The translations under genes and the position numbers were made by a program. The notes beneath the pieces were generated by a model, which worked only from the letters and a program-made list of their open reading frames with translations, was not told where the DNA came from and searched no databases. From a virus (Duplodnaviria; Caudoviricetes): DNA of 64,000 nucleotides. The stretch's first letter is position 1, and every line of letters starts with the position of its first letter. Positions 1,621-60,567 of the stretch are shown here, piece by piece. Location: IMG/VR virus record IMGVR_UViG_3300005662_000036, positions 1 to 64,000 of that record; one strand, given 5' to 3'.

Positions 1621-1642
1621 GTTTTTTTAAAAAAAATTGTAC

Positions 1643-4600
1643 ATGAAAAATCTCACAAACCTATTGACAATGTTTGATTGTCAACTTCCGACGGGCATAC
1701 CAATCCCTCAGCTTGAATGTTTTTCTGTTTTTACCGACAATACTATAATCTATGCTATAGATCCTTTTAGTAAAAGTGCTTATATTTCATTTGTTACTTT
1801 TTTGTATAATCTAGATCCTTCGTTCGTTAGTTTCGATGCTTTGAGTAACGGAGAAGGGTATATTTTTTCAGGAGGAGATATTGCAACGCCTCCTCCTTAC
1901 GCATTATATGATACAGCTAGCGAAACTATCCCTTCTTCAAAACAACTTACGGGATTTTTCGAAATAGCTGAATACAAAAATAATAGTTCTACAAATATTT
2001 CAGATAACCCAGGAATTACTCAATTTGAGTTAATATATAAATGCGTAAATGATTCATATGATGCTTGGGTCTATGAACTCTATCTGCTTGAAGTAGATTT
2101 GGGCATACCTTTTAATAGTTTTAATACATTTGACCCTGGTGTTACTTATTTAATTCTTCATAAAATGCAGCAACCAGTAGTTCCGTATTTATTTTATGAT
2201 AACGGAGCTAATTCAGTCACCCCTACTCCAACCGTTACCCAGACTCCTTCTAACACTCAGACACCAACTCCTTCTAACACTCAGACTGTTACTCCGACAA
2301 ATACAATAGATCCCACACCAACGTTAACGGTAACTACTAGTGAAACTCCAACCCAGACTCCTTCTAACACTCAGACACCAACTCCTTCTAACACTCAGAC
2401 GCCAACTCCTTCTAATACTCAGACTGTTACTCCTTCTAATAGTTTAACACCAACTCCTTCTAATACTCAGACTGTTACTCCCTCCAACGAACCAACCCAG
2501 ACTCCTTCTAACACTCAGACGCCAACTCCTTCTAATACTCAGACTGTTACTCCTTCTAATAGTTTAACACCAACTCCTTCTAATACTCAGACTGTTACTC
2601 CCTCCACCCCTGTTCCTTTTTATTCGATAAACATTCGCAATTTAACAGATCTTGCTTCTAATTCTATTGATGAAGGATTACCTGGAGTATTTTGGCTGTC
2701 TGGTTTTAATATTTCTCAGTCGCAAATATCATATACTATTACTGGAATTTCGCAAGAAGACATCAATATACCTTTAACTGGTATTTTTGAGTCTACGGGT
2801 TCTATAGGAAATTATTGGGAGTCTGCAACTGTTGATTTTACTATATTATCCGATTTCGTTACAAACGAGGTAGAAAGGTTAATTGTCACGTTAGACGGCA
2901 TTACTCCGACCGTTTCCGCCGAATTAATTATCAACGACGTTTTACCTACTCCTACTCCTACAGTAACTCCAACAGAAACTCCAACAGAAACTCCAACGCC
3001 TACGCCTACCCCTACTCCTTCTGAAACCCCTTCTGAAACTCCAACTGTAACTCCTACTTCTTCTCAAACCCCAACAAACACGCAAACCTCTACACAGACA
3101 CAAACACCTACTCCTTCAATTACTCCTTCTAGCACTCCAATTGATTACGGCATCGTAGTTTCTCCACAACTTTCGACTGTTGGATTGATGGGAGCAACAT
3201 ATTTTGCGGTAGGAGAACCTTCAACCATCACTTTTACGATAACTTCTACCAGAAATCCAGAAACTCCAGTTAACATTGAGTATAACATAACCGGTGTTGA
3301 TTTGGCTGATTTTATTCCAGGAACTGATTTTACAGGAACTTTAAATTATCCTTTAGAAAAATTTGCTACGTTCCATGTAGTAGCTGATGCTAGAACTGAG
3401 GGAAATCAGCTAATGACATTAACAATAGTTAATGGACCAACTAATGCGATAGGTAAAAAAGGAGAAATGTATATAGTAGATACATCTCAATCTCCTCCAG
3501 CTTATACTTTGTTTTTGTCTGGAAACGGATCAACTACCGGATTTGTTAACGAAGGATCGACTGTAACGTTTGCTCTAGAAACCAGAGGAGCTTATAACGG
3601 AACACCAATTTTTTATCAAGTAACTGGAATTAACGAGGAAGACATAATTATTGGAGAATCTTCTCCTTTAAGTGGTTATTTTGTTATTAACAGTATTATA
3701 ACTACAGATACTACAGAGTTTCCTGATCCTTTGCCTGTAGATTATGCTTTTATTAAATTTGTTTTAAAAGAAGACATTTCAGCAAATGAAGGTGATGAAA
3801 CGCTCGTGGTAACATTGTCGAGTCATATAGATCCAATTAGAGGTTTAGTTTCAAGTACTGATGGAATGAATGCTGGTGTTTTAATTAAAGACACTTCAGT
3901 AACTCCAACACCTACTCCAACTTGTACTCAAACACAAACTCCATCTAATACTCAAACACAAACTCCATCTAATACTCAAACACAAACTCCATCTAATACT
4001 CAAACACAAACTCCATCTAATACTCAAACTCCCACGCCTTCTTATACACCAACTCAAACTCCGTCTAACTCACAACCTTCTACTCCAACTCCAACTCCAA
4101 CTCCGTCTCCAAGCCCAGAAATAAGTCCGTATCTTTTTAGATACGGAGGAATTGGAGCTGCTATGTTATTAGAAGCAAACACAAACGATTTTTGCGTAAA
4201 TCTTTTGACTGGCACTAACATTTTAACTGGCTCAGAAATGCCATATGAAATTTTAGGGTTCAATGGATCCACAACTTATTCTATTGATAATCCTTCGTGG
4301 TTGCCTCTCACAGGCAGTTTTGTTGTTGGATTTGATTCATCTGTTAGTTCGGATGTGATTTTGTCGAATGAAGCGGATGCCATAAGCTTCCAGCTTTCAG
4401 CTAATACGCCAGGGAATTACTATTTGATATTACATTTAACTACTAACGATCCAGTAGGAACGGAAATACCATACACATTTCTTCCGTATGATCCTTCTAC
4501 ATCACTTCCGTCTTCTCCCGCTCCTTCTCTCATGCTAGCAACTAATGCTGCAGCAAATCTTGTAACGTTCGTAGATCCTCAGCTAAATGAGTTTACCTCA

Positions 4601-5299
4601 AATAATCCTGGCCAAATAATTGATGCAAGCAATTGTTCTTCCTTAATTTCTTTAAATGCTGAGTACTGTACTCACGTAGAGGTTGTTGGCTGCACGAGTT
4701 TAAATGAATTAAATTGTTCCTTTATGGGCAACAAAGAACCATCAACATTAAATGTTTCTGGATTAGAATCATTAACAACTTTGAATTGTTCGTATTCGTA
4801 TAACATAAATTCAATCAACACAACAAATTGCTCTTCGCTGCAGAATTTATTGCTTCCAGGTACATCAGTAACTTCTCTGATATTAGCAGATTGCAACGAT
4901 ATACGTTATATTAACGTAGACTCATCAGCTAACATCAGTACGGTTAATTTATCAAATAAACTTTTATTAACAAGAGCTTCGATGAGCCATTGTGTTAGTC
5001 TTACATCAATTAACGTTTCTGGCTGTTGCTCTCTTACCGGTATACAATGTAGCTTTAATCCAAATTTAGTAGAATTAAATGCATCACAATGTTTTGCTCT
5101 CACTGTTTTTGATTTCAACCAATGCTGTTCTCTTGTTAATATTAATTTGGAAAATTGTAATCTAAACACAGAACAAGTAGACTTTGTATTGAACGCCTTG
5201 TGTTCGGACAACGGAACACTAAACATCAAAGGTAATTCAGAACCTTCTTTACTTGCTTACGACTCAATCATCTCAAAAGGATGGACAATTCACAAATAA
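1643..5299 (+). CDS. large mucin-like (Thr/Pro/Ser) virion protein with three Calx-beta-like domains and a C-terminal leucine-rich-repeat domain
   Basis: ATG 1643 preferred over TTG 1637. Three TPSNTQT/TPTETP tracts; three repeats of the type VNEGSTVTF...YxITG...D...EGxETLxVTL; C-terminal LRRs (NCSSLISLNA, GCTSLNELNCS, GLESLTTLNCS) with a GTLNIKGN...KGWTI cap. Confidence 0.75.
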   Translation: MKNLTNLLTMFDCQLPTGIPIPQLECFSVFTDNTIIYAIDPFSKSAYISFVTFLYNLDPSFVSFDALSNGEGYIFSGGDIATPPPYALYDTASETIPSSKQLTGFFEIAEYKNNSSTNISDNPGITQFELIYKCVNDSYDAWVYELYLLEVDLGIPFNSFNTFDPGVTYLILHKMQQPVVPYLFYDNGANSVTPTPTVTQTPSNTQTPTPSNTQTVTPTNTIDPTPTLTVTTSETPTQTPSNTQTPTPSNTQTPTPSNTQTVTPSNSLTPTPSNTQTVTPSNEPTQTPSNTQTPTPSNTQTVTPSNSLTPTPSNTQTVTPSTPVPFYSINIRNLTDLASNSIDEGLPGVFWLSGFNISQSQISYTITGISQEDINIPLTGIFESTGSIGNYWESATVDFTILSDFVTNEVERLIVTLDGITPTVSAELIINDVLPTPTPTVTPTETPTETPTPTPTPTPSETPSETPTVTPTSSQTPTNTQTSTQTQTPTPSITPSSTPIDYGIVVSPQLSTVGLMGATYFAVGEPSTITFTITSTRNPETPVNIEYNITGVDLADFIPGTDFTGTLNYPLEKFATFHVVADARTEGNQLMTLTIVNGPTNAIGKKGEMYIVDTSQSPPAYTLFLSGNGSTTGFVNEGSTVTFALETRGAYNGTPIFYQVTGINEEDIIIGESSPLSGYFVINSIITTDTTEFPDPLPVDYAFIKFVLKEDISANEGDETLVVTLSSHIDPIRGLVSSTDGMNAGVLIKDTSVTPTPTPTCTQTQTPSNTQTQTPSNTQTQTPSNTQTQTPSNTQTPTPSYTPTQTPSNSQPSTPTPTPTPSPSPEISPYLFRYGGIGAAMLLEANTNDFCVNLLTGTNILTGSEMPYEILGFNGSTTYSIDNPSWLPLTGSFVVGFDSSVSSDVILSNEADAISFQLSANTPGNYYLILHLTTNDPVGTEIPYTFLPYDPSTSLPSSPAPSLMLATNAAANLVTFVDPQLNEFTSNNPGQIIDASNCSSLISLNAEYCTHVEVVGCTSLNELNCSFMGNKEPSTLNVSGLESLTTLNCSYSYNINSINTTNCSSLQNLLLPGTSVTSLILADCNDIRYINVDSSANISTVNLSNKLLLTRASMSHCVSLTSINVSGCCSLTGIQCSFNPNLVELNASQCFALTVFDFNQCCSLVNINLENCNLNTEQVDFVLNALCSDNGTLNIKGNSEPSLLAYDSIISKGWTIHK
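2381..2606 (+). repeat. 106-bp perfect direct repeat (120-bp period) within the Thr/Pro stalk
   Basis: 2381-2486 is identical to 2501-2606; embedded in shorter actccttctaa[c/t]actcagac units spanning ~2240-2600. Confidence 0.85.
3926..4029 (+). repeat. 24-bp tandem repeat x4 (TQTQTPSN)
   Basis: actcaaacacaaactccatctaat, four perfect copies at 3926-4021 plus a partial copy. Confidence 0.9.
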
Positions 5300-5300
5300 T

Positions 5301-5519
5301 ATGAATAACGTTTTTTATGCTTTTGTAGGACCGAGAGGTAGAATCAACAAAGTTTTTACTGAAGTTCAACCTTCAGCTGAAATACCAAAGGGAATTACTC
5401 AAATTCAACTAACAGAAAATGAATTTAATACTGTTAAAACTCTCAACATGTCTAATAAACACGCTGTTTGGAAAAATGGGTCGGTTGCGGAATTTCAACA
5501 ACCAACTATAAAACCATAA
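5301..5519 (+). CDS. small hypothetical protein (possible fibre chaperone/assembly factor)
   Basis: ATG 5301 directly follows the stop of the LRR gene; 72 aa MNNVFYAFVGPRGRINKV... Confidence 0.55.
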   Translation: MNNVFYAFVGPRGRINKVFTEVQPSAEIPKGITQIQLTENEFNTVKTLNMSNKHAVWKNGSVAEFQQPTIKP

Positions 5520-5542
5520 TGTGTATTTGGCTGTGAGTTGCA

Positions 5543-6340
5543 ATGAAAACCATTCATTTTGTATCCGGACTGCCTAGATCTTGTTCTACTCTTCTCTGCA
5601 ACTTACTAGCTCAAAATCCTAAATTTCATTCAAGCTCTTCTTCCGGTTTAATCGATTTAATTTATCCAGCAAGAAAAAATTTAGTGGACTGCTTAGAGTT
5701 CAAATCTATGAATCCTGCAGATTCTGAAGCTATGTTTCTAGATTGGGCAAGAGGTGGAATATTGAACGCTTATAATTCTTTAACTAATAGACCTACGGTT
5801 TTTGATAAAGGTAGATCTTGGCTTGGATATTTAGATTTATTATTTCAACTATTTCCTGAAGCAAAAGTAATTGTTACGGTTAGAGATATTCGTGGAATTT
5901 TGACTTCAATAGAAAAAAAAAGAAAGTCTCACCCAGCCTATTTTATAGGAGAAGAAGCTAATCAACTTCATTACACCACAATTGAAAAGAGAGTACAATC
6001 TTGGCTTTCGACCCCAATTCTTGGAATTCCCATTGAAAGACTTCGTGATGCAACAAATTCGTTCAAACACAAACTTTGTTTTGTTCACGCAGAAGAACTA
6101 ACAACAAAGCCAGAAAATGTTATGAAAAATATATATTCTTATTTAGAGGAAGAGTATTATTCTCATGATTTTAATAATATCGAGCAATACACAAAAGAAC
6201 ACGATGGAGTATGGTGGCCCATTGGGGATCATTCTATTAAAAAAAACATAATGCAAATTCAAACAAATTGGGATGAAATATTAGGAAAAGAGTTGTCTGA
6301 CATATTATCAGTTAAATTTGATTGGGTTAATCATTTATAA
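5543..6340 (+). CDS. PAPS-dependent sulfotransferase
   Basis: N-terminal 5'-PSB loop FVSGLPRSCSTLLCNLLAQNP; KVIVTVRDIRGILTS (3'-PB region); HAEELTTKPENVMKNIYSYL typical of the family. Confidence 0.8.
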   Translation: MKTIHFVSGLPRSCSTLLCNLLAQNPKFHSSSSSGLIDLIYPARKNLVDCLEFKSMNPADSEAMFLDWARGGILNAYNSLTNRPTVFDKGRSWLGYLDLLFQLFPEAKVIVTVRDIRGILTSIEKKRKSHPAYFIGEEANQLHYTTIEKRVQSWLSTPILGIPIERLRDATNSFKHKLCFVHAEELTTKPENVMKNIYSYLEEEYYSHDFNNIEQYTKEHDGVWWPIGDHSIKKNIMQIQTNWDEILGKELSDILSVKFDWVNHL

Positions 6341-6352
6341 GTTTAATTGGGT

Positions 6353-6358
6353 TAAATA
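6353..6358 (+). promoter_or_regulatory. TAAATA late-promoter-like motif
   Basis: 15 nt before ATG 6374. Confidence 0.45.
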
Positions 6359-6373
6359 ATTAAACTCAAGCAC

Positions 6374-9235
6374 ATGATTAGCGATCGCACAAAAAAACTT
6401 AGGAATACAACATTTCTTAGCGGCAAACAAGATTTTCCTATACCAAGCAGAACATGCACTCCTACAACAACCCAAACGTCGACTCAAACGCCCACAAATA
6501 CTGTAACGTGCTCTCAAACTCCAACAAATACAATCACTCAAACCAAAACACCAACACAAACTCCTACTATTACAAAAACAAAAACTCCAACTCCTACTTA
6601 TACTCCAACTAAAACGCCAACTTCTACTACTACACAGACGTCAACACAAACCAAAACTCCAACAAAAACTCCCTTTCCTACTTCATCTCCGACGGTTACT
6701 CCTACAACATCTCCATGCATATCAGGTCCGAATTGTGTGGTGCATGCATCAGATGCAATATTTCTTTGTTATGATTGTTATCCACTAAAAAAACTACATC
6801 CTTCATACGACGACTTAACAGGACCTGGAAATTACTCATCGATGGGTTTAGCTTTTCCTAAAGCTAACTCCGGTTCGTTAGATAACGTTGCTATAGGACC
6901 TGGTGCTCAGGTTATAGTATATTCTTCTAGTAATTTTACTGGAACAGTGTTATTTTCTGGAATAGGACCATTAGTATTAACAAACAGCAGACACAACACC
7001 GGCAGTTATGCAGCATGTCATGTCGGAACTTATCCAGATTCTGATATACAAAACATGTTTCCGCTTTCTTCTCGAATTTGGGTAGATCTTCAACCTTGGA
7101 AGTCTGGTTCCATCAGCATTAATTGTTGTGGTGTCGTAATTCCTACTCCAACTCCAACTCCAACTCTATTGTTAGGCAATTGTGTAACACCATTCGATAC
7201 ATCAAAGGTGTTTTGGGGCACTATCGATGCAGCTGGTTCTCCCAATCAAACTATAAGCGTTCCAGCTGGAGTATTAGGAGCAAGTGCTCAAACTATAAAT
7301 ATTACATTAAATTCTCCTACATCAAATGATACGACTACAAATTCATTTTATGATTATACTAGAATTCCTTGTGCTTTTAAAAACGCGGACGGAACTGCTG
7401 CGGCAACTAATTGGGATGGAGCTAAAACATGGACCTTCTCTCAGCCAATAACAAATCCCGCTTTAGCTATTTATTCTCTTGGTAATCCAGGAGCAAGGTT
7501 GTCTTTGACTACTTCTGCGAATTCGTGGAAAATTTTATGCAATGCTGACTCTCAAGGAAGCAGATTGTGTATCAGTCAAGACGGGACAACGGTTCAAGGA
7601 CAAGAAGGATACGGAATTATTGTATTTCCTGGTACATACAATTCAATTACTATTACTTCAAATCTGTCTGAATATTGGACAAATTATGCTTGGGGAGCAG
7701 TTAGCACCACTCTTTTAAACGACACAACTTGCGAAGAATGTGCTTCGGCTCCTACTTCTACTCCAACGCCAACTAACACAAAGCTTTCTGTTTCTGTTAC
7801 ACCAACCACGACTCCTACAACTACTCCAACAAAAACGTTTAATCCGAACGCATTCCAACAATTGTTTATCAACTATAACAATTCCGGTAAAGATGTGTAC
7901 AGAACAACAGGATATCCAATTTCAGCTATTATTTCAGGATATTCTCATCCTTTAACATATGGCAGTAATGAATATAAGGTATTTAATAATACACTAAGCG
8001 CTTTAGATTTTTGGAGCTTAGCTCTTTCAGGAAGTAGTTTTACTACAAGAACCGCTGGTCCCACCATTTATGACGGATCATCATTTGTTTCTAATCCGCT
8101 TGCAAATATTTCACATCGAGGATTGTTGATACATATTACTTCTTATTCCGCATCAGACGGGTTGCTTGGTTTTGCAAGTCCAGCTTATGTAAGAACCGAT
8201 GTAGGAACTCGTTCTTTCTTAGTACCTCATGAAGGATACATGAAATTAAATTTAAATTATATTTCAACTGTCAATTTATTACCAACGCTCATACCTAGCA
8301 GAAGCGAAAATTGGTATGTAATAGTTCATGAGATTGCACACGCTTTAGGAATAGGAACGATGTGGCATAATTCCAACAATCGCTCATTTATTGTTGGAGC
8401 TGGAGACACATCAAGTACGAGCTTAAATTTGGGAGTATCAGCAAACTTTTTTTATAGTTTATCTAATGTTGGAGGTACAAGACTAGCAAACCACGTCGGT
8501 GGACCAACCCTTATTGGATCAGCGAGTGCTTTTATGGGAGACGCGAGGTTTTCGAATGCATTTAATAGTTTTCATGCAGTATCTCCTGCTTCAAAAGCTG
8601 TGCAATTTTATAATTTAGCTTATAATTTAGCTCTCACAGCAATTCCGGTTGAGAATGGAAGAGGGTTTGGTTCAATTGGAGTGCATTGGGACGAAGGACA
8701 TTCTACAGCTGACTATGGTTCAGATGATCGTTTGTATTATGGTACTTCAATTCCTTGTATGCAAGATGAATTGATGACACCTCAATCAGAAGGTAATTTT
8801 GACATGCCGATATCAAAAGTTTCATTTGGAGCACTCGAAGATTTAGGATATGCTGTAAATTACAGCATGGCAGACAATTTTGAACCTCTCGTTTATAACA
8901 TAAACTATAGTGGAGACAGCAACAATCCTCTAATTGTTGATTTTTATAATTTTACTTTAAACACACAAGGAGTGTACGGTGAAACTGATTTAATTTCAGG
9001 TAAACCAATTTATTTAAGAAAAGGAAATATATATACTTTTAAAATTACTTCTACTGTTGCTGTAAAAATAACAAATTCAGCTGATGGGTCTACTCTTGTA
9101 ACAAACGGAGTAACTAATAATAATATAACATCAGGATCCATTATTTATTCTGTTCCTGCTTCCTTATCTTCTCCAACTATTCATTGGCTTTTTGCAGAAA
9201 ATCCTCAAGCAAAAGCAAAGATAATAATTTTTTAA
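6374..9235 (+). CDS. mucin-like stalk protein with beta/gamma-crystallin-like domain and leishmanolysin-like (M8-type) zinc metalloprotease
   Basis: Thr/Pro tracts; SLDNVAIGPGAQVIVYSSSNFTG (crystallin Greek-key-like); VIVHEIAHALG (HEXXH at 8327), GVHWDEG, DELMTP, ISKVSFGALEDLGYAVNYSMAD. Confidence 0.75.
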   Translation: MISDRTKKLRNTTFLSGKQDFPIPSRTCTPTTTQTSTQTPTNTVTCSQTPTNTITQTKTPTQTPTITKTKTPTPTYTPTKTPTSTTTQTSTQTKTPTKTPFPTSSPTVTPTTSPCISGPNCVVHASDAIFLCYDCYPLKKLHPSYDDLTGPGNYSSMGLAFPKANSGSLDNVAIGPGAQVIVYSSSNFTGTVLFSGIGPLVLTNSRHNTGSYAACHVGTYPDSDIQNMFPLSSRIWVDLQPWKSGSISINCCGVVIPTPTPTPTLLLGNCVTPFDTSKVFWGTIDAAGSPNQTISVPAGVLGASAQTINITLNSPTSNDTTTNSFYDYTRIPCAFKNADGTAAATNWDGAKTWTFSQPITNPALAIYSLGNPGARLSLTTSANSWKILCNADSQGSRLCISQDGTTVQGQEGYGIIVFPGTYNSITITSNLSEYWTNYAWGAVSTTLLNDTTCEECASAPTSTPTPTNTKLSVSVTPTTTPTTTPTKTFNPNAFQQLFINYNNSGKDVYRTTGYPISAIISGYSHPLTYGSNEYKVFNNTLSALDFWSLALSGSSFTTRTAGPTIYDGSSFVSNPLANISHRGLLIHITSYSASDGLLGFASPAYVRTDVGTRSFLVPHEGYMKLNLNYISTVNLLPTLIPSRSENWYVIVHEIAHALGIGTMWHNSNNRSFIVGAGDTSSTSLNLGVSANFFYSLSNVGGTRLANHVGGPTLIGSASAFMGDARFSNAFNSFHAVSPASKAVQFYNLAYNLALTAIPVENGRGFGSIGVHWDEGHSTADYGSDDRLYYGTSIPCMQDELMTPQSEGNFDMPISKVSFGALEDLGYAVNYSMADNFEPLVYNINYSGDSNNPLIVDFYNFTLNTQGVYGETDLISGKPIYLRKGNIYTFKITSTVAVKITNSADGSTLVTNGVTNNNITSGSIIYSVPASLSSPTIHWLFAENPQAKAKIIIF

Positions 9236-9242
9236 TTTAAAT

Positions 9243-9443
9243 ATGACTCCAACCAATATTACAAACAAAACAGAGGCTTACGATTATCTTTTTTATGTTT
9301 ATAAACAAGAAGCTGAATTTAAACCAGATCTATATGATCAAGCAAAATTATTTTTTACGGAGTTGGAATTAAAAGAATTGTACTTAGGACCAGACATTAT
9401 TTTTAACGACTGTTTTCCTTGTCACTGCAAGCATATACATTAA
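9243..9443 (+). CDS. small hypothetical protein with Cys/His-rich C-terminus
   Basis: 66 aa ending CFPCHCKHIH; convergent with the portal gene, 4-nt overlap. Confidence 0.5.
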   Translation: MTPTNITNKTEAYDYLFYVYKQEAEFKPDLYDQAKLFFTELELKELYLGPDIIFNDCFPCHCKHIH

Positions 9444-11353
9444 GACACTGGGCTTGTTGCTGGAGATACAGCTTGTGCTGTTGAAGGCGTTTCAACTTCA
9501 GGTCCAGCAGAACTACTTGCTGTGTCAGTAGAGGATGTTTGAGTAGGTTCGTTTGTTTGTCCGCCAAAATCAGGTACTTCACCTTCTCCTGGAGCTTCTT
9601 TACCAAATTCGGGTATTTCCGGAGAAGCTCCTCCTCCGCCAGACATCATATCTGATGCTCCTCCAGTAGTGCTGTCTGTAATCTCTTGTTGGCTAGCAGC
9701 CAGTTCTCTGAAGTTTGGACCACTAGCTTTAATTTGTTCGAGCTCCCAGGTTAGTGCTGCATCTCTTCTCATCCACTCTCTGTTCTCTTTCATTTCTTCA
9801 GCAGACATATCTAAATAGTATTTTTGTGCATAAGATTTAGAAATAAACTCACCTTGAGTTGCAGAATTATAATTTTCAAATTTTAAGGCAAGAAGCTGTT
9901 GGTTGCGCATCGTCATGAAAGACGTTGGCTCGTTAAATTTAATTCTGAAAGACTGTTCTTTCAAATTATATTCATCCCACAAACCTTTGAGTTTGAGATG
10001 AGTAATAAACGTTTGTTTTATGCCTGAAGCAACTTGAGCTTGAAGTCGAATTATAAATCTTGCAAATCTTAATTCATCTCTAGTTATTTCTGCTCCATCT
10101 TTAAAAACATCACCTGCAGTTAAAAATCTAGAAATTGGAACCTTTAGAGTTTTATATAATTTTGTTAAAAAATAATCTAAGTCTTTTATTTCATTAAGAG
10201 GATTGGATGAAGGTAGTGTGTTTACTTCAGTTCCCTTTCCAGAAGCATCAACTGGAAACCAATACGCATCCAACATGGATTGTGGATCATATACATTAGC
10301 AACTTGCTTTTCAGTACCGTTATAAGTTTTTTTTGACCAAAACTTCATCATGAGACCTTTAATGTATGCTTCAGCTCTTGGTGGAGGCATATTGCCTGTA
10401 TAGACTTTGAACTGTAATCTTTCTGGTGCTCGAACTAAACGGTAAACCACAACCGCATCTTCTATCAGCGTCAATTGTCTATATGCTCTTTTACTATTTT
10501 CTATAAACGGAATTCGTATTGTTCTAAATTCATTCCACAAATTAGAATGCATATAACTCACTTGAGCTTTTTGTAAGAACAAAAGCTCTTCTTGATCTTC
10601 TCTATTTATAGACTCAGTAGGACCAACGATTGGTTTTCTGAGTAAAAACCCTTTCAATAATTCGTTTTGTACGTTGTGATAAACGGGATTAATCAACTCA
10701 GAAGGAATCGACATGACTCCTATTATGCCCAATCTCTTTTTTTCTTGATGAATTATGTTTTCAAAAAACACTTCTCCTTCTACAAGGAGCTGACGAAACA
10801 ATTCCCATCCTTTATTTTCAAGGTCGAATATTTGAATAAACGAAAAAAACTCTTTAATAATCGAATCTTGAACCGTTTTTGAGTAAGTGTTTTGAATGTC
10901 AATTTTAACAACTTCTTGTTTTTCGTTTAATACAATACATTCATCGCAAATTTCATCTAAGCAGTCAGCTAGTTCAGCATAAGCAGCCATTTTTCTATAG
11001 TCCATCAGCCTATTGCTTTTATCTTTGTCTATTTGTGCATATATAAAAGCTTGGTAGTCTTTATTAAAAGAGAAACTTCCTGGAGTTCCCGTGCCATAGT
11101 TGTCTTTACCTCCAAAATCATCTCCTATAAAAACGGATTGTTTTTGAAGCATTTCTTCTCTATTCGAAGACTGATGTTTAAAGTCGTAAAATTTTGGATT
11201 ATTATTAATAAGCGAATCGATAATTTGAAGAGAAAACGGTAATCGATTTAAAACTGCACTCATTAAGCTCGTTTGTGGATAAGGAGAAGGTTTTGTTCCT
11301 CCCGTCGAGTTTCCAGGAACCGAAGCGTTATATGTATATGGTCGATAGATCAC
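9440..11353 (-). CDS. 20: portal vertex protein (T4 gp20-like)
   Basis: Conserved gp20 motifs RAPERLQFKVYTGNMP, SMLDAYWFP, GTEVNTLP, DLDYFLTKLYKTLKVPISR, ITRDELRFARFIIRLQ. Confidence 0.95.
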   Translation of the reverse strand: MIYRPYTYNASVPGNSTGGTKPSPYPQTSLMSAVLNRLPFSLQIIDSLINNNPKFYDFKHQSSNREEMLQKQSVFIGDDFGGKDNYGTGTPGSFSFNKDYQAFIYAQIDKDKSNRLMDYRKMAAYAELADCLDEICDECIVLNEKQEVVKIDIQNTYSKTVQDSIIKEFFSFIQIFDLENKGWELFRQLLVEGEVFFENIIHQEKKRLGIIGVMSIPSELINPVYHNVQNELLKGFLLRKPIVGPTESINREDQEELLFLQKAQVSYMHSNLWNEFRTIRIPFIENSKRAYRQLTLIEDAVVVYRLVRAPERLQFKVYTGNMPPPRAEAYIKGLMMKFWSKKTYNGTEKQVANVYDPQSMLDAYWFPVDASGKGTEVNTLPSSNPLNEIKDLDYFLTKLYKTLKVPISRFLTAGDVFKDGAEITRDELRFARFIIRLQAQVASGIKQTFITHLKLKGLWDEYNLKEQSFRIKFNEPTSFMTMRNQQLLALKFENYNSATQGEFISKSYAQKYYLDMSAEEMKENREWMRRDAALTWELEQIKASGPNFRELAASQQEITDSTTGGASDMMSGGGGASPEIPEFGKEAPGEGEVPDFGGQTNEPTQTSSTDTASSSAGPEVETPSTAQAVSPATSPVS

Positions 11354-11383
11354 AAGTTTTAATTATTTGGTTTTGGTAATAAA

Positions 11384-11911
11384 TCACTTTACAACAACAA
11401 AATGATTTGTAAACTCACTTTTTTTAATTACTTCATAACTTTGTTCAAAATTTGTTAAAGAAAATGTTCCAATTACATCTCCGCTTTCTAAAGCAATAAT
11501 GTTTTTTTTACTGTCGAATATAGTTGCAGGGCTTCCTTCGTAAATAATTCCATTAAATAGTGTTTTTCGATAAGCATACTCTTTAACTGTTCCTAATCCT
11601 TTGATTGGACACTCATGTTCAAACAAGTGTTCGAATTCATGAAGCTTCAGTACACGTTGATGTTTTGTTGATGTCTCTTGAACAAGCCAATAATCTTTAC
11701 TAACCTGTTCTTGAAATCCGTTGATAGTAACAGTTTCTCCTTCATTTAATAATCTCGCAAAAACGGTTGATGTTTTTTTGAATTGTTTAATAAGCGTTGT
11801 GTTTTTTCTTATTTCGCATAATATATTATGTGTAGTCTTTTCTATTGTGTTTTTTTCGACCTTTATATATAATGTTTGAAACTCATCCCACTCTTTACTT
11901 TGTTTTGTCAT
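11384..11911 (-). CDS. hypothetical protein
   Basis: 175-aa ORF filling the gap upstream of the portal; no recognised motif. Confidence 0.6.
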   Translation of the reverse strand: MTKQSKEWDEFQTLYIKVEKNTIEKTTHNILCEIRKNTTLIKQFKKTSTVFARLLNEGETVTINGFQEQVSKDYWLVQETSTKHQRVLKLHEFEHLFEHECPIKGLGTVKEYAYRKTLFNGIIYEGSPATIFDSKKNIIALESGDVIGTFSLTNFEQSYEVIKKSEFTNHFVVVK

Positions 11912-12212
11912 GATTCAATTATTTAATAAAAAGACCTCTAATAAGAAATCAAACAACTCACTTGAAATATTACCGCGCTCGTTTTTTGTGTGGACATCGA
12001 TTCGAGCAGGAGATGGTATGCTTTTTTTTGAAGAGTATGACGATTATTATAAATTTTTATATTTTCCTGGAAACGATTTTTTTTGTCTAACCAAACAAGA
12101 TTTCAATCAGTACGTTAGCCAAGAAATATTAGTTTTTGTTGAATGTATGCCTCAAGATATTTTTGATGAAACGATAAAATATTCGTTGTCTTGTCTTCAA
12201 AAAGCAGAGTAG
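11910..12212 (+). CDS. hypothetical protein
   Basis: 100-aa ORF, first of a run of small + strand genes; start uncertain. Confidence 0.55.
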   Translation: MIQLFNKKTSNKKSNNSLEILPRSFFVWTSIRAGDGMLFFEEYDDYYKFLYFPGNDFFCLTKQDFNQYVSQEILVFVECMPQDIFDETIKYSLSCLQKAE

Positions 12213-12224
12213 ATTACGTTTCGT

Positions 12225-12473
12225 ATGAAAACTAAATATAAAAATAAAGAATCAAACAATGTATCTATTGAAAGAATGTCCGTATATGAAATGTGTAGAT
12301 GGGCCTCTTTGAAAGAAGCAGTTGATATTATTGCAGACAAGTGTGAAGATCGCAAGGTAGATTTTGAAACATTTGATCTAAAACCATTAGATATTTTAAA
12401 ATTTGTGGACACAATGACAGATGATCTATATAATAAAGTTCTAGCACAGACTCCAATACATGAACAAAACTGA
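12225..12473 (+). CDS. hypothetical protein
   Basis: 82 aa, tightly packed. Confidence 0.65.
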   Translation: MKTKYKNKESNNVSIERMSVYEMCRWASLKEAVDIIADKCEDRKVDFETFDLKPLDILKFVDTMTDDLYNKVLAQTPIHEQN

Positions 12474-12900
12474 ATTTAAAATTTTAACAATCTCCTTAGT
12501 TCTTACTTTTGCTTTATCTGCAATAATAGGAGTTGCTGGAAGTTTTATAATTGGCTCGTTTTGGGCATGGTTCTGCTTGTCTTTTTTTGCACAAGTTATA
12601 ATATTTGCTATAGCTAATTCGTTTACTATCAATAAGCTTTCTCTCGAGCAAGAAAAAGCAAACGCAATAGCACTTGAACAATTTTCAAAATTTAGCATTA
12701 AAATATCATGCGCATATTGTAATCAATATGCTTTGGTTCCTATTCAGCTAAATCAAAAAAACACGTTTAAATGCGAAAATTGCAATCAAGTAAATGGAAT
12801 TTCCATGCAATTTACTTCAACAACAATAACAACACCAATCGAATCAGTTACTGTCCCAATAGACAGCGGAAATTCATTTGAATTTAAAGTTTCTAGATAA
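12460..12900 (+). CDS. membrane protein (2 TM) with C-terminal zinc ribbon
   Basis: Two hydrophobic segments, then CAYC-x17-CENC. Confidence 0.7.
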   Translation: MNKTEFKILTISLVLTFALSAIIGVAGSFIIGSFWAWFCLSFFAQVIIFAIANSFTINKLSLEQEKANAIALEQFSKFSIKISCAYCNQYALVPIQLNQKNTFKCENCNQVNGISMQFTSTTITTPIESVTVPIDSGNSFEFKVSR

Positions 12901-12908
12901 TTAAACAC

Positions 12909-13187
12909 GTGGAAAATTTTCAAAATTTTGTAAACTTAAATATTAATTCTATTCTTCCAGAGCCTAAGCCTATTAAACATTTAAGCTATCCTTTGGAAAC
13001 AATTGATGAAGATTTAGCTAGAATTTATTGCTCAATTGATACTCTACTTACAAAAGTGAAAATTGCTCAAAAAAATCCAACGAACGAATCTCCAGCATAC
13101 ACTAAGCTATTGAAAAACGTAGAATATAAAGTTGCAAGCTGCAGAGATTTAATCAAACAGATAAATCAGCAAATTCAAAAAATTTAA
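12909..13187 (+). CDS. hypothetical helical protein
   Basis: 92 aa, GTG start. Confidence 0.55.
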   Translation: MENFQNFVNLNINSILPEPKPIKHLSYPLETIDEDLARIYCSIDTLLTKVKIAQKNPTNESPAYTKLLKNVEYKVASCRDLIKQINQQIQKI

Positions 13188-13207
13188 TTTTTTTTTTTAA
13201 TAATTCG

Positions 13208-13236
13208 TTGAAAAAAAAAATCTTTTAGTTTAAATT
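13208..13236 (+). promoter_or_regulatory. sigma70-like early promoter candidate
   Basis: TTGAAA-17 nt-TAAATT, 7 nt before ATG 13244, in the intergenic gap. Confidence 0.4.
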
Positions 13237-13243
13237 ACAAAGA

Positions 13244-13504
13244 ATGATTTCACCAACAATTTATATAGTCAAACAAGAACAAGTAGGAAGTCAAGATTTG
13301 CAGGAATTTCTTAGAAAACAAATTAAGCTTCAATTTGAAGGAAAAGAATATTACATATCTAAAGAAGAAATAATCGAAAAGCCGACACATTATTCAAAAA
13401 CTCCGAGAAAACTCAGAGGATTTCTTATTAACGAAAACAACACAAAAGGCCATTCGATTTGGTTTGACGTAACAGACATTAAAACTGTTCAATGGGTAGC
13501 TTAA
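13244..13504 (+). CDS. hypothetical protein
   Basis: 86 aa after a candidate early promoter. Confidence 0.6.
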   Translation: MISPTIYIVKQEQVGSQDLQEFLRKQIKLQFEGKEYYISKEEIIEKPTHYSKTPRKLRGFLINENNTKGHSIWFDVTDIKTVQWVA

Positions 13505-13508
13505 TCTT

Positions 13509-13811
13509 ATGAGTAACGATTTTATTGAAAAAGCATCAGCTGCATTAAAAGAGGCAGCAAAAACAATGCATGAGCGAGGCGGCGAATATGCTGATACGTG
13601 GGGAAAAGACGGGTGCTGGCATCTAACCAAGTCCATTATTAAAAAATATACAGAAAAAGAACTTGATAACGAATCCGTAAAAGCTATTGCGTTAGCTTCT
13701 TTTATAGATCAAAAGTATTCTCGATTTGCTGGAGGTTATAAACACGATACAGCACTAGACTTAATTCCTTATTTGGGAGCACTTTCAGAAACAATTAAAC
13801 AACAACAATAA
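13509..13811 (+). CDS. small helical protein resembling DUF6378 / nucleotide-modification-associated domain proteins
   Basis: AAKTMHERGGEYADTW resembles the ERGxxYG / KxxDYG motif; DTALDLIPY resembles the DxxxDLxxY motif of these phage proteins. Confidence 0.45.
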   Translation: MSNDFIEKASAALKEAAKTMHERGGEYADTWGKDGCWHLTKSIIKKYTEKELDNESVKAIALASFIDQKYSRFAGGYKHDTALDLIPYLGALSETIKQQQ

Positions 13812-13814
13812 ATA
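13809..13814 (+). promoter_or_regulatory. TAAATA late-promoter-like motif upstream of the glycosylation cassette
   Basis: 12 nt before ATG 13827. Confidence 0.5.
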
Positions 13815-13826
13815 ACACACTACATT

Positions 13827-15065
13827 ATGTCAACCATATTCATACAAATAGCTTCTTATAGAGATCCTCAACTTGTTCCAACACTTAAAGATTGCATTGC
13901 TAAAGCCAAATATCCAAAAAATTTGAGATTTTGTATTGCATGGCAACACGATGAAACGGAAAATTTAGACGAATTTAAAAACGACAAAAGATTCAATATT
14001 CTTGATATTCCGTTTGAACAATCTAAAGGAGCATGCTGGGCCAGAAATCAAATCCAACAGCATTATAAAAATGAGACATATACTCTACAGCTTGATAGCC
14101 ATCATAGATTTGTTCAAGACTGGGATGAAGAGTGCATTAACATGATCAAGCAATTACAGGACGATGGTCATAAAAAACCTTTACTAACTTCATACATTCC
14201 AAGTTTTGATCCAGATAACGATCCAGGAGCAAGAGTTGACGTTCCTTGGAAAATGAATTTCGATCGCTTTATTCCAGAAGGTGCTGTATTTTTCTTGCCA
14301 GCTTCGATTGACAATTTCCGAGAGTTGCAAAAACCAATTCCTGCTAGATTTTATTCTGCTCACTTTGCTTTCACGTTAGGACAATTCTGTAAAGAAGTTC
14401 CTCACGATCCTGAATATTATTTTCATGGAGAAGAAATTTCTATAGCAGTTAGAGCTTTCACGTGGGGATATGATTTATTCCATCCGCACAAAATTGTCGC
14501 ATGGCATGAATATACCAGAAAAGGTAGAACTAAACAATGGGACGATGACAAACAATGGGTTGCCAGAAACGATGCCTGTCATCTTAAAAATAGAAAATTG
14601 TTTGAAATGGATGGTGAAAAAAGAGATGTTGATTTTGGAGTCTATGGATTTGGTAAAGTAAGAACTTTAGATCAATACGAAAGATATTCAGGTCTTTGTT
14701 TTAAAAGAAGAGCCATTCAAAAGTATACTTTAGATAATAACATTGCTCCGAATCCTCAATATTCAAACGAAGAAGAATATCGAAACTCTTTCTTATCAAT
14801 ATTTAAACACTGTATTGATATTGGATATGACCGCGTTCCTGAAAAAGATTATGATTTTTGGTGTGTTGCTTTTCACGGAGAAAACGACGAGACTTTATAC
14901 AGAAAAGATGCAGATCAAGAAGAAATCAGCAGAATGATGAATGATCCAGACAAATATTGTAAAGTTTGGAGAGAATTTAATGCAGAAGTCAAACCCAAAT
15001 ATTGGGTAGTATGGCCGTTCTCTAAGAGCAAAGGTTGGGGAGAAAGAATGACAGGTAACTTATAA
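13827..15065 (+). CDS. GT60 / Gnt1-like polypeptide N-acetylglucosaminyltransferase (Pfam GlcNAc-like)
   Basis: TIFIQIASYRDP at the N-terminus, QSKGACWAR, LQLDSHHRF (DSH motif at 14094-14102), FHGEEISIAVRAFTWGYDLFHP, WHEY; no signal peptide or TM. Confidence 0.85.
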   Translation: MSTIFIQIASYRDPQLVPTLKDCIAKAKYPKNLRFCIAWQHDETENLDEFKNDKRFNILDIPFEQSKGACWARNQIQQHYKNETYTLQLDSHHRFVQDWDEECINMIKQLQDDGHKKPLLTSYIPSFDPDNDPGARVDVPWKMNFDRFIPEGAVFFLPASIDNFRELQKPIPARFYSAHFAFTLGQFCKEVPHDPEYYFHGEEISIAVRAFTWGYDLFHPHKIVAWHEYTRKGRTKQWDDDKQWVARNDACHLKNRKLFEMDGEKRDVDFGVYGFGKVRTLDQYERYSGLCFKRRAIQKYTLDNNIAPNPQYSNEEEYRNSFLSIFKHCIDIGYDRVPEKDYDFWCVAFHGENDETLYRKDADQEEISRMMNDPDKYCKVWREFNAEVKPKYWVVWPFSKSKGWGERMTGNL

Positions 15066-15066
15066 A

Positions 15067-15642
15067 ATGGAAAAAAAGTTTTTTGTAGTTTCTTTACCAA
15101 GAACCGGAACATCGTCGATAACAAAAATGGCTTTAACGTGTGGGTTAAAGCCTCGACATGCTCCACATTCTCTGTGGAAAAGGTTTGCTACAGATCACAA
15201 TTTTTTGTCAGATACTCCAATATACTGTCCTTTTGCTATAAACGAATTTTGCCAAAACGAAAAACTAAACTGTCATTTTATTTACATAGATAGAGAGTGG
15301 GAAGATCTGTTCCAATCATGGAAAAACTCTAAATTGTTTGCGAACTACGAAAGTATGAAAAAAAACTATTTAGATCCAAACTATAATAAACCAATTCCAT
15401 ATGATTTTATTGCATATCAATCAGCATTTAATGGAGATTTGTTGAACGAGCAAAATTACGCAAGCTTGTTTGAAACGCACAAAACCACAGTATTTGATAT
15501 AATCAAGGCTCACAATAAACCGTTGCTTGTTTATAGTTTTAACCAAGGATGGGAGCCTTTTTGCAACTTTATCGAGAAAGATGTTCCTAGTGATATTTTA
15601 CCACATTTAAATAAAGGTAAAATGCTAGACAAAATTGTTTGA
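15067..15642 (+). CDS. sulfotransferase (Sulfotransfer_4-like)
   Basis: FFVVSLPRTGTSS at the N-terminus and LLVYSFNQGWEPFCNFIEKDVPSDILPHLN at the C-terminus. Confidence 0.75.
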   Translation: MEKKFFVVSLPRTGTSSITKMALTCGLKPRHAPHSLWKRFATDHNFLSDTPIYCPFAINEFCQNEKLNCHFIYIDREWEDLFQSWKNSKLFANYESMKKNYLDPNYNKPIPYDFIAYQSAFNGDLLNEQNYASLFETHKTTVFDIIKAHNKPLLVYSFNQGWEPFCNFIEKDVPSDILPHLNKGKMLDKIV

Positions 15643-15669: not shown

Positions 15670-16611
15670 ATGAACACAATTATCGTACACACTCCTCAAA
15701 ACGAAGCCAGCAGAACTTATAGATATTATAATTATTTTTGGGAAGATTTTATAAAATTGTTGGAAACAAAATTTTTTGTAAAACAAGACACGTATTATGA
15801 ATACGCTAATATGAAATCTTACTCTGTTAAGCTACTGAATGACGTGTCTTGTAGCGAACTGCTAGAGTGTGAAATGATAATAGAAAACGAACAAACAAAA
15901 CAGTTTGTTATAATGTCCGTTTCTGATTGTTTAACCGGAGCTATTTTAAACCACCAATCAAATGAGCTATGCCAAAAAGTTTTAGTTGCTCAATTTGATG
16001 AACAAAACATACTTGCTCACTTATTAAACAAAAATAATATTTCAAAGTATTCTCCTTGGATTTACTTTCCTTCAAATAAATTCGACCTAGATGCTTTTTA
16101 TCAAGCACGTAAAAGTAAAACTGATTTGATAGACAAGTTTTGTTTTTGGGGAACTTCTTTAGAAGATCGTGCTATTTTAAGTCATTTTAACTCTGAAGTG
16201 TTTGACGGAGGACGTCCTATAGGAGATTTTAATACATATGCATCTGTGTTGACACAATATAAAGTCGCATTATCTATAGCAGGCAGAGGAGAGTTTTGTT
16301 ACAGAGATATCGAAAATTTTGGGATGGGAGTGCCGATTATAAGATTTGAATATAAAAATAAAATGGCAAAACCTTTAATTCCAAATTTTCACTATATAAG
16401 CGCTGGTGCTCCAGAGGATCTTATATATGATAGAATGGGTCAAAAGCATCACGCGGAAATGATAGAACACAGATTCAATCAAGTAAAAGACGACAAAGAT
16501 TTTTTAAAATTTATTTCAGAAAACGCTAGACAGTATTACATAGATAATCTAAATACAGACAGCAGCGTACAATTAACATACAATCTTTTACAACTACATG
16601 AGTGGGAATAA
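15670..16611 (+). CDS. GT-B glycosyltransferase (GT90/exostosin-like C-terminal domain)
   Basis: YKVALSIAGRGEFCYRDIENFGMGVPII...LIPNFHYIS...LKFISENARQYY. Confidence 0.65.
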   Translation: MNTIIVHTPQNEASRTYRYYNYFWEDFIKLLETKFFVKQDTYYEYANMKSYSVKLLNDVSCSELLECEMIIENEQTKQFVIMSVSDCLTGAILNHQSNELCQKVLVAQFDEQNILAHLLNKNNISKYSPWIYFPSNKFDLDAFYQARKSKTDLIDKFCFWGTSLEDRAILSHFNSEVFDGGRPIGDFNTYASVLTQYKVALSIAGRGEFCYRDIENFGMGVPIIRFEYKNKMAKPLIPNFHYISAGAPEDLIYDRMGQKHHAEMIEHRFNQVKDDKDFLKFISENARQYYIDNLNTDSSVQLTYNLLQLHEWE

Positions 16612-17479: not shown

Positions 17480-18094
17480 ATGACAACAACAATTACAGGC
17501 GTTACCAGTTATAAAGGTATAATGCTTCAACAACACGAAAATATATTTAAAGTTTTAGGAGACTTTCTTAAAGAAATTAAGCCCAAGCGAATTTTAGAAA
17601 TTGGAACAGGAACAGGAGCATTAACTCTTTTTATAAGAGATTTTCTTGATGAAAACGGACTTTCTGAGACAGAAATAAGAACATTCGACGTTAACGACAA
17701 CACAGAGGTTCACGATAGATTGAGAAATATGACTAACGTTATTGTGTCGAAAGAAAATTTGTTTGCTGGAGGAAATGACTTTACTCTATTAAGATACGAT
17801 TTAATCGAATCTTATATTAAACTAGAAGGTACGACTTTAGTGCTTTGCGATGGAGGTTGTAAAATAAAAGAATTTAATCAAATAGCTCCTCTTATAAAGG
17901 TTGGAGATTTTATTATGGCTCACGACTATGCTGACACACGAGAAAATTTTGATAACAAAATTTACGATAAAATTTGGAACTGGAGAGAAATAGGAGATGA
18001 AGATATCGAAGAAGCAGTTCAAAAAAATAATTTAGTACCATATAATAAAGAAAATTTCGATTCGGTTGTGTGGGTATGCAGAAAAAAACAATAA
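17480..18094 (+). CDS. class I SAM-dependent methyltransferase (CmcI/Methyltransf_24-like sugar O-methyltransferase)
   Basis: KPKRILEIGTGTGAL (motif I), LVLCDGG, LIKVGDFIMAHD. Confidence 0.8.
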   Translation: MTTTITGVTSYKGIMLQQHENIFKVLGDFLKEIKPKRILEIGTGTGALTLFIRDFLDENGLSETEIRTFDVNDNTEVHDRLRNMTNVIVSKENLFAGGNDFTLLRYDLIESYIKLEGTTLVLCDGGCKIKEFNQIAPLIKVGDFIMAHDYADTRENFDNKIYDKIWNWREIGDEDIEEAVQKNNLVPYNKENFDSVVWVCRKKQ

Positions 18095-18099
18095 AGATT

Positions 18100-60558: not shown

Positions 60559-60567
60559 TGCGGCATT

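Follow-up and report, generated by a model that had tools for sequence, protein, structure and literature searches.

We analyzed a 64,000-nucleotide stretch of DNA (hereafter the window), positions 1 to 64,000 of IMG/VR record IMGVR_UViG_3300005662_000036, which belongs to a 72.9-kb viral contig (CheckV completeness of 33%) of an uncultured T4-like freshwater phage (Duplodnaviria; Caudoviricetes). The open reading frame (ORF) at positions 13827-15065 of the + strand encodes a glycosyltransferase of family GT60 that bears an extra C-terminal domain and heads a six-gene glycan cassette (Table 1). Judging from these sequences, the phage probably coats its own proteins with sugar. The reading that we favor, and consider reasonably probable, is that the enzyme is the initiating polypeptide O-N-acetylhexosamine transferase for the phage's own Thr/Pro-rich, mucin-like proteins, and that the first sugar is followed by extension, methylation and sulfation. 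We infer the donor, the linkage, the identity of the acceptor and the order of the steps as follows. GT60 would be a cytoplasmic, metal-dependent, retaining enzyme of the GT-A fold, most likely using UDP-N-acetylglucosamine as a donor and making an alpha-linkage. It would place the first sugar on Thr (or Ser) within the Thr/Pro tracts of late phage proteins during their synthesis and assembly in the host cytoplasm. Extension and decoration of the chain would then fall to the downstream genes, which encode two HtrL-like domains and a GT2-like domain along with a sulfotransferase and two methyltransferase domains.

The ORF exists as called, with an ATG start and a product of 412 amino acid residues. 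Its membership in GT60, proposed in a preliminary description made from the letters alone, is clear from profile searches: Pfam model PF11397 (GlcNAc, which is CAZy GT60) matched with an E-value of 1.1e-70 and 239.3 bits against a cut-off of 21, and PHROG 24687 (“glycosyltransferase”, in the category “moron, auxiliary metabolic gene and host takeover”) spans the ORF full-length, with all 409 positions aligned and an E-value of 1.5e-182. No NCBIfam model matched the protein. The PF11397 match stops at residue 292, corresponding to profile position 350 of 352, and leaves approximately 120 residues beyond the Pfam domain. The motifs highlighted in the preliminary description begin at residues 9 (ASYRD), 90 (DSH), 201 (GEE), 214 (GYD), 219 (HPH) and 226 (WHEY). 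In an alignment of 47 diverse homologues, D90, S91 and H92 are each conserved in at least 90% of the sequences and H227 is invariant; H227 is presumably equivalent to the C-terminal metal-binding His of GT27 enzymes. The replacement of DxD by DxH is a specific hallmark of GT27 and GT60 (PMC7185993), and all characterized GT60 enzymes glycosylate polypeptide Thr or hydroxyproline (PMC8724618, PMC9472816).

The AlphaFold2 model computed from the 47-sequence alignment (predicted local distance difference test [pLDDT] score of 95.8, predicted template modeling score of 0.91) adopts a GT-A fold from residue 1 to about residue 324. Its top 29 structural matches are all polypeptide GalNAc-transferases (ppGalNAc-Ts) of family GT27 (Z 19-22.5, root mean square deviation [rmsd] of ~3.5 Å, ~275 residues), led by GalNAc-T10 (Z 22.5, rmsd of 3.5 Å over 280 residues), and the other GT-A enzymes stand a clear step below them with Z 17.7 or less. 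Profile and fold together lead to GT60 and to its structural neighbor GT27 rather than to an unrelated glycosyltransferase family. Identity to GT27 enzymes in the structural alignments is 11-15%, and the GT27-type model PF00535 scored 19.2 bits on the ORF, below its cut-off of 23.3. Searches of the PDB with the protein sequence and with the 47-sequence profile returned E-values of 0.5 or worse, with no GT60 structure detectable.

The preliminary description also called the enzyme eukaryote-type, a label that its distribution does not bear out. GT60 is described in the literature as spanning prokaryotes and protists (PMC7185993). Searching a set of 5.8 billion proteins returned more than 7600 relatives, of which the best 120 are full-length and 71-86% identical, the top one being the window's own protein; among clusters at 50% identity, 4478 matched (E-value of 1e-3 or better). 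The family occurs in at least 560 bacterial species of many phyla, including on chromosomal contigs of isolates, and relatives are encoded by at least 253 IMG/VR contigs, the best 80 of these 253 being 67-78% identical. Full-length homologues with 47-50% identity are found in four cultured jumbo phages (Xoo-sp13, XacN1, CM1 and RAS14), and BFVD holds “Glycosyltransferase, GlcNAc” entries from uncultured Caudovirales, Megaviridae and Pandoravirus. In an unrooted tree of phage and bacterial sequences only, the freshwater phage enzymes form short-branched groups near contigs of Bacteroidota metagenome-assembled genomes (MAGs), and the bacterial clades follow taxonomy. UniProt, GenBank and PHROGs already list phage GT60 genes, and taken alone such a gene is unsurprising; a literature search on GT60 or PF11397 in phages and bacteria, and on mucin-like glycoproteins of phages, turned up no functional study.

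The C-terminal domain claimed in the preliminary description is well supported by structure prediction. The module has a pLDDT of ~96 within the whole-protein model, and residues 310-412 folded alone (pLDDT of 96.2) form a seven-strand sandwich that spans residues 322-411. In a VIA exhaustive search with the module, fibronectin type III (FN3) domains came out best (Z 7.6, rmsd of 2.7 Å, 78 residues), a similarity that the tool rates as generic. Foldseek returned no PDB match below an E-value of 1e-3 with this module, a search of the ESM Atlas with the C-terminal part gave no usable match, and Pfam gave neither an fn3 nor a Ricin_B_lectin match in the ORF at an E-value of 0.01 or below. The models thus indicate a real folded domain that looks like an FN3/immunoglobulin (Ig)-like sandwich, not the ricin-type beta-trefoil of GT27 enzymes. 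Describing the module as aromatic-rich was an overstatement because the whole protein is aromatic-rich, with Phe, Trp and Tyr making up 17% of residues 331-412 against 15% of residues 1-292. The aromatic motifs that had drawn attention (FKHCIDIG at residue 326, FWCVAF at 344, KVWREF at 379, YWVVWPFSK at 392 and GWGER at 403) look in the model like ordinary sandwich-core positions.

Conservation separates the parts of the protein. Among 79 phage homologues the module is 69% identical on average against 73% for the catalytic part, and in a distant set these values fall to 26% against 47%, a pattern that fits a specificity or partner-binding module, or merely a structural domain under looser constraint. 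The linker between them is the least conserved part, with a mean identity of 52% among phage homologues. Approximately half of the best 150 clusters (50% identity) align through to the end of the query, which indicates that the long architecture is that of a large subfamily and not a quirk of one phage. Homologues of this long form are encoded by at least 253 IMG/VR contigs, by the four cultured jumbo phages and by hundreds of bacterial species. The module could be a clade-specific accessory for recognition of the acceptor or of a partner, or could be structural.

A candidate for such a partner is the last product of the cassette, an 817-residue protein (ORF 18070-20523) in which an FkbM methyltransferase domain (residues ~34-196), an HtrL/YibB-like domain (~259-508) and a GT2-like GT-A domain (~535-817) with an invariant E642-D643-D644 follow one another. 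The HtrL+GT2-like pair is present in 69 of 81 viral GT60 loci, always on the same strand as GT60, and in 34 of 80 bacterial loci (33 on the same strand), where it is often adjacent to GT60. In bacterial loci flanked by at least 3 kb on either side, it accompanies 18 of 40 long-form but none of 17 short-form enzymes, a contingency that is confounded by phylogeny because the short forms belong mostly to one Burkholderiales clade. Complex prediction between GT60 and residues 255-817 of the partner gave a score of 0.00, which counts neither for nor against binding.

Spacing between neighbors among the six cassette genes ranges from a 25-nt overlap to a 27-nt gap. A homologue of the 313-residue protein that matches no known family occupies the corresponding place in 22 of the 81 viral loci. 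The 287-residue protein, which BLASTP aligns with residues 260-507 of the 817-residue protein (23% identity over 270 residues, E-value of 1e-6), also has homologues in 22 of 81, as well as in XacN1 and RAS14; for the methyltransferase that is encoded separately the count is 31 of 81. The HtrL-like gene and the HtrL+GT2-like partner stand in the same order as here in XacN1 and RAS14, where a carbamoyltransferase replaces the sulfotransferase; in XacN1 (AP018399.1, 216551-223508) this 765-residue carbamoyltransferase is encoded directly after GT60. From one lineage to another, decorating enzymes seem to replace each other, with GT60 and the HtrL+GT2-like partner remaining constant. The structural genes that flank the cassette in the window are not shared within 10 kb of GT60 in any of 80 viral loci, which indicates that GT60 travels as part of the cassette.

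Candidate acceptors are abundant in the same DNA. Six ORFs of the window contain 30-residue segments made up of 60-87% Ser, Thr and Pro, and a complete relative of the phage (G001) has four such ORFs. Across loci, Thr/Pro-rich ORFs cluster directly beside GT60 and again past the far end of the cassette. We counted this enrichment per cluster, with loci dereplicated at 85% GT60 identity and adjacency defined as lying within 1 kb. An adjacent Thr/Pro ORF was present in 9 of 39 viral clusters, against 2.8 expected (Poisson p of 0.0025), all of them directly upstream and on the same strand, and in 8 of 72 bacterial clusters, against 2.0 expected (Poisson p of 0.0012). Outside their tracts these adjacent ORFs are mutually non-homologous.

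Bacterial contexts likewise point to proteins. In 17 genomes of Burkholderiales and Neisseriales, GT60 lies inside a type VI secretion system (T6SS) cluster, directly after tssF-tssG(-tssA), and the Paraherbaspirillum soli locus (1426-14392) has two tandem copies within its T6SS cluster. Eleven of these 17 loci keep VgrG in the flank, and several of the VgrG proteins have long (PT)n C-terminal tails, so that the enzyme may glycosylate the T6SS spike. These GT60s are mostly short forms lacking the FN3-like domain and make up one clade (SH-aLRT of 98) that is sister, in the unrooted tree, to the enzymes of jumbo phages XacN1 and RAS14. The same-strand run that holds the full-length GT60 of Sphingobacterium zeae (1502-12726) also encodes a radical-SAM enzyme and a C39-peptidase ABC exporter, together with a 2Fe-2S ferredoxin, an outer-membrane barrel and a DXD glycosyltransferase; it looks like a cluster for a modified peptide (a glycocin-like ribosomally synthesized and post-translationally modified peptide, or RiPP). 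Both contexts suggest peptide or protein acceptors rather than polysaccharides. Separately, the product of one Saprospiraceae GT60 neighbor has an N-terminus resembling a Tat signal and a C-terminus resembling a type IX secretion system (T9SS) sorting domain, as judged by eye.

These observations invite comparison with known systems. The protist GT60 enzymes (TcOGNT1/2 of Trypanosoma cruzi and Gnt1 of Dictyostelium and Toxoplasma) share PF11397, DxH and a GT-A fold near GT27 with the phage protein. TcOGNT initiates O-glycans on mucin-like Thr tracts and Gnt1 on hydroxyproline, and Gnt1 is cytoplasmic, as the phage enzyme would be. The phage enzyme differs in being prokaryotic/viral, in its FN3-like C-terminal domain outside the Pfam model, in its operon with HtrL-like, GT2-like, methyltransferase and sulfotransferase genes and, relative to Gnt1, in that no prolyl 4-hydroxylase (P4H) partner was found on its contig (33% complete). 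GT60 is distinguished from GT27 mainly by the absence of a ricin-like domain (PMC8724618). The ppGalNAc-Ts of animals and apicomplexans are the closest solved structures and share the DSH motif, mucin-type initiation and the combination of a catalytic with an accessory C-terminal domain. That domain is however a ricin beta-trefoil of ~130 residues in GT27, against an FN3-like sandwich of ~90 residues in the phage, and GT27 enzymes are type II membrane proteins of the Golgi, whereas the phage enzyme is soluble. In Gram-positive bacteria, glycosylation of serine-rich repeat (SRR) adhesins begins in the cytoplasm, where GtfA/GtfB initiate O-GlcNAc on a Ser/Thr repeat protein encoded at the same locus, and further glycosyltransferases then extend the chain. 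The likeness lies in cytoplasmic initiation on a protein with a long low-complexity tract followed by several extending enzymes; the SRR initiator is a GT-B enzyme (GT4) with a chaperone-like partner and SecA2/Y2 export, and has no homology to GT60.

Two phage systems are also comparable. In Xanthomonas jumbo phage XacN1, ORF334 aligns over its whole length with the window's enzyme at 49% identity, C-terminal domain included, and its cassette partners are the same. Periodic acid-Schiff (PAS) staining of XacN1 virions reveals at least two glycoprotein bands, which Yoshikawa et al. suggest are made by ORF328 and ORF334 (PMC5852040). The giant ORF325 of XacN1, located after the baseplate wedge genes, contains a PT tract ~3 kb from the cassette. 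XacN1 has a 384-kb genome and belongs to a different phage lineage, in which the cassette lies beside replication genes and this giant baseplate-proximal ORF. In mycobacteriophages, phage-encoded glycosyltransferases together with a methyltransferase are reported to act in the cytoplasm on virion proteins of the phage itself (Freeman et al. 2023, as cited in PMC12619734); the glycosyltransferase families differ from ours, and the sugars go to capsid and tail-tube subunits at their C-termini instead of to long Thr/Pro tracts. Phage virion glycosylation and mucin-type initiation by GT60 are each known, and their combination in prokaryotes is uncharacterized.

Several points weigh against initiation on Thr/Pro tracts. 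The donor and acceptor proposed here are extrapolated from the biochemistry of the protist enzymes to a prokaryotic and phage branch. The PAS-positive bands of XacN1 were neither identified nor linked to ORF334. Thr/Pro tracts are also common as plain linkers, and in the window the nearest Thr/Pro ORF lies 4.6 kb upstream of GT60 with the portal gene between them. The background rate used for the enrichment was drawn from the same flanks (10 kb for viral and 8 kb for bacterial loci), and the Poisson p-values are optimistic because the loci are phylogenetically related. The partner is missing nearby from 22 of the 40 long-form bacterial loci, and polysaccharide and glycolipid pathways are just as typical a setting for HtrL/YibB proteins, FkbM methyltransferases and sulfotransferases.

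This last point opens the way to the alternative that survives best, although we regard it as unlikely, namely that the cassette makes or modifies a non-protein glycan (host lipopolysaccharide [LPS], capsule, cell-wall polymer or lipid-linked oligosaccharide), with a sugar or lipid as the GT60 acceptor and superinfection exclusion or surface remodeling as the outcome. HtrL/YibB is named for a gene of the E. coli LPS core region (PF09612, TIGR02192), O-methyltransferases of the FkbM/CmcI type and sulfotransferases often decorate polysaccharides and glycolipids, the automatic JGI name of several homologues is “glycosyltransferase involved in cell wall biosynthesis”, and no Thr/Pro ORF touches the cassette in the window. 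Such a pathway sits poorly with a Pfam scan of the cassette and the ORFs downstream, which revealed no flippase, polymerase, ABC exporter, undecaprenyl-phosphate priming transferase or nucleotide-sugar synthesis gene. The structural neighbors of the enzyme are specifically polypeptide transferases, Thr/Pro ORFs are enriched beside GT60, and the two bacterial neighborhoods scanned with Pfam are the T6SS and RiPP-like clusters, not polysaccharide loci.

To a second alternative we assign little probability: the enzyme would glycosylate host proteins, as part of takeover or anti-defense, or phage proteins outside Thr/Pro tracts, such as the C-termini of capsid or tail-tube subunits. The polypeptide-transferase fold and the PHROG host-takeover category are compatible with this scenario, as is the report of mycobacteriophage glycans on capsid and tail-tube C-termini (Freeman 2023, as cited in PMC12619734). 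Co-localization in both phages and bacteria is however specifically with Thr/Pro-tract ORFs, and a six-gene elaboration cassette exceeds the needs of a regulatory single-sugar modification.

The acceptor might also be hydroxyproline, as reported for Dictyostelium and Toxoplasma Gnt1 (PMC11570480), if the missing two-thirds of the genome encoded a P4H that hydroxylated the Pro residues of the tracts beforehand. Pro is as abundant as Thr in these tracts, the contig is only 33% complete, and two other GT60-bearing phage contigs (G006 and G008) carry three and seven genes for 2OG-Fe(II) oxygenases of family PF13640 (P4H-type), partly in tandem arrays. We nevertheless find this mode improbable. The earlier remark that no prolyl hydroxylase is visible in the window was correct and extends to the whole contig, in which a search beyond the window for PF13640 gave no match. 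Searches of the contig and of three relatives that are 100% complete (G001, G002 and G005), and whose GT60 is 67-78% identical to the ORF, returned neither PF13640 nor PF03171, and PF13640 was also absent from genomes G007 and G009. Where P4H-type genes do occur, they lie at least 20 kb from GT60. The complete relatives devoid of these oxygenases indicate that hydroxyproline is not a general requirement, and together with the six candidate acceptors of the window they support the earlier preference for Thr/Ser. Finally, glycosylation of hypermodified phage DNA (hydroxymethyl-pyrimidine sugars) in the T-even style, which the T4-like nature of the phage and the frequent modification of DNA by phage glycosyltransferases (Pyle 2024, as cited in PMC12619734) might suggest, is highly improbable given that the fold neighbors are polypeptide transferases and not DNA glucosyltransferases, that the same cassette resides in bacterial chromosomes, and that no ThyA-family hydroxymethylase (PF00303) was found in the phage's own contig (G000) or in the three complete cassette-bearing relatives, the control genomes having given matches.

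Taking initiation on Thr/Pro-rich proteins as the favored reading, we advance a broader proposal, tentatively and as a possibility rather than an expectation. Phage and bacterial GT60 would form a widespread prokaryotic mucin-type O-glycosylation system, composed of a cytoplasmic GT60 initiator, an HtrL/GT2-like extender and variable methyl-, sulfo- or carbamoyltransferases, that puts decorated glycans on the Thr/Pro-repeat proteins of extracellular contractile machines (phage fibers or decorations and T6SS VgrG tails), with the clade-specific FN3-like domain recognizing the acceptor or a partner. If protein glycosylation of this kind is confirmed, large aquatic phages, and certain bacteria too, would produce mucin-like glycoproteins of their own, using an initiating enzyme in the style of protists and animals. 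The Thr/Pro “linkers” of phage fibers would have to be read differently, and freshwater phages would have a means to shield the virion, make it sticky or recognize the host. The large prokaryotic branch of GT60 would also become open to functional study for the first time; we found no characterized member of that branch and no solved structure. The idea is directly testable because four cultured jumbo phages carry a full-length GT60, among them XacN1 with its published PAS-positive virions.

Table 1. Features of the window, with oxygenase genes of two other GT60-bearing contigs in the last two rows
Feature	Position	Strand	Evidence
Candidate acceptor, 1220 aa; several TPTPSNTQ-type tracts, Ig-like modules, C-terminal leucine-rich repeat (LRR) region	1637..5299	+	36% S+T+P overall, 87% in best 30-aa window
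Second sulfotransferase (Sulfotransfer_3), between two Thr/Pro-rich ORFs	5543..6340	+	PF13469, E 6.5e-16
Candidate acceptor, 953 aa; N-terminal Thr/Pro tract, HEIAHALG zinc-protease-like motif	6374..9235	+	Sub-threshold Peptidase_M8
T4-type portal with Ser/Thr/Pro-rich C-terminal tail (weaker candidate acceptor)	9440..11353	-	PF07230, E 1.5e-94; tail 60% S/T/P
GT60 catalytic GT-A domain (aa 1-292)	13827..14702	+	D90-S-H92, G201-E-E203, invariant H227
Linker (aa 293-321), conserved P-N-P	14703..14789	+	Least conserved part
Predicted C-terminal FN3/Ig-like beta-sandwich (aa 322-412) plus stop codon	14790..15065	+	Fold
Sulfotransferase (Sulfotransfer_4)	15067..15642	+	PF17784, E 1e-17; start 1 nt past GT60 stop codon
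Cassette protein, 313 aa, no family	15670..16611	+	No Pfam, PHROG or NCBIfam match
Second HtrL/YibB-like protein, 287 aa	16598..17461	+	BLASTP to ORF 18070-20523
SAM-dependent methyltransferase (weakly CmcI / rhamnosyl O-methyltransferase-like)	17480..18094	+	PF13578, E 4e-4; PF04989, E 2e-3; both below cut-off
FkbM methyltransferase / HtrL-YibB-like / GT2-like protein, 817 aa	18070..20523	+	PF05050, E 6e-15; PF09612, E 1e-19
Three consecutive Thr/Pro-tract ORFs	57857-59812, 59821-60558, 60568-63039	+	Last two 44% and 48% S+T+P overall
PF13640 (2OG-Fe(II) oxygenase) genes, contig G006	32797-35529		Pfam
PF13640 (2OG-Fe(II) oxygenase) genes, contig G008	40972-44828, 208556-209372, 246834-247070		Pfam

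Some of the candidate acceptors have recognizable features beyond their tracts. The N-terminal ~190 residues of the proteins encoded at 1637-5299 and 60568-63039 are homologous (30% identity), and their sequences suggest that these products may be paralogous fiber or receptor-binding proteins. Each has Cys/Leu-rich LRR-like repeats at its C-terminal end, and these match LRR_EndoS weakly. The 953-residue protein, to judge from its motif and tract, may be a mucin-stalked protease carried on the virion or released by it; the family of its sub-threshold match, Peptidase_M8, is that of leishmanolysin. A homologue of the Sulfotransfer_3 protein encoded upstream is found in G001 a few kb from the portal gene, with one large ORF between them as in the window.

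The contig encodes a T4-type portal, a clamp loader, a weakly matching baseplate protein and homologues of genes from a complete 226-kb phage genome. Compared with G001, GT60 is 78% identical and the portal 49%; two of the three other most conserved proteins shared with G001 match the level of GT60 (range of 73-82%). A Megablast search with the 12 kb around GT60 gave no match to a GenBank phage, and a protein identical to the ORF is encoded on a 224.5-kb ENA contig. Scans for the T4 late-promoter motif TATAAATA, for sigma-70 promoters and for terminators gave matches at chance level only. No Shine-Dalgarno-like sequence precedes the GT60 start codon (13810-13830), and the closest non-viral GT60 matches (59-63% identity) come from Saprospiraceae, Bacteroidia and Cytophagaceae MAG contigs, some of them with a T9SS-type neighbor; these two observations give a weak hint that the host is a freshwater member of the Bacteroidota. 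The GC skew of -0.39 at positions 60001-62000 coincides with Thr/Pro-coding repeats (ACN/CCN codons) and is not a replication signal.

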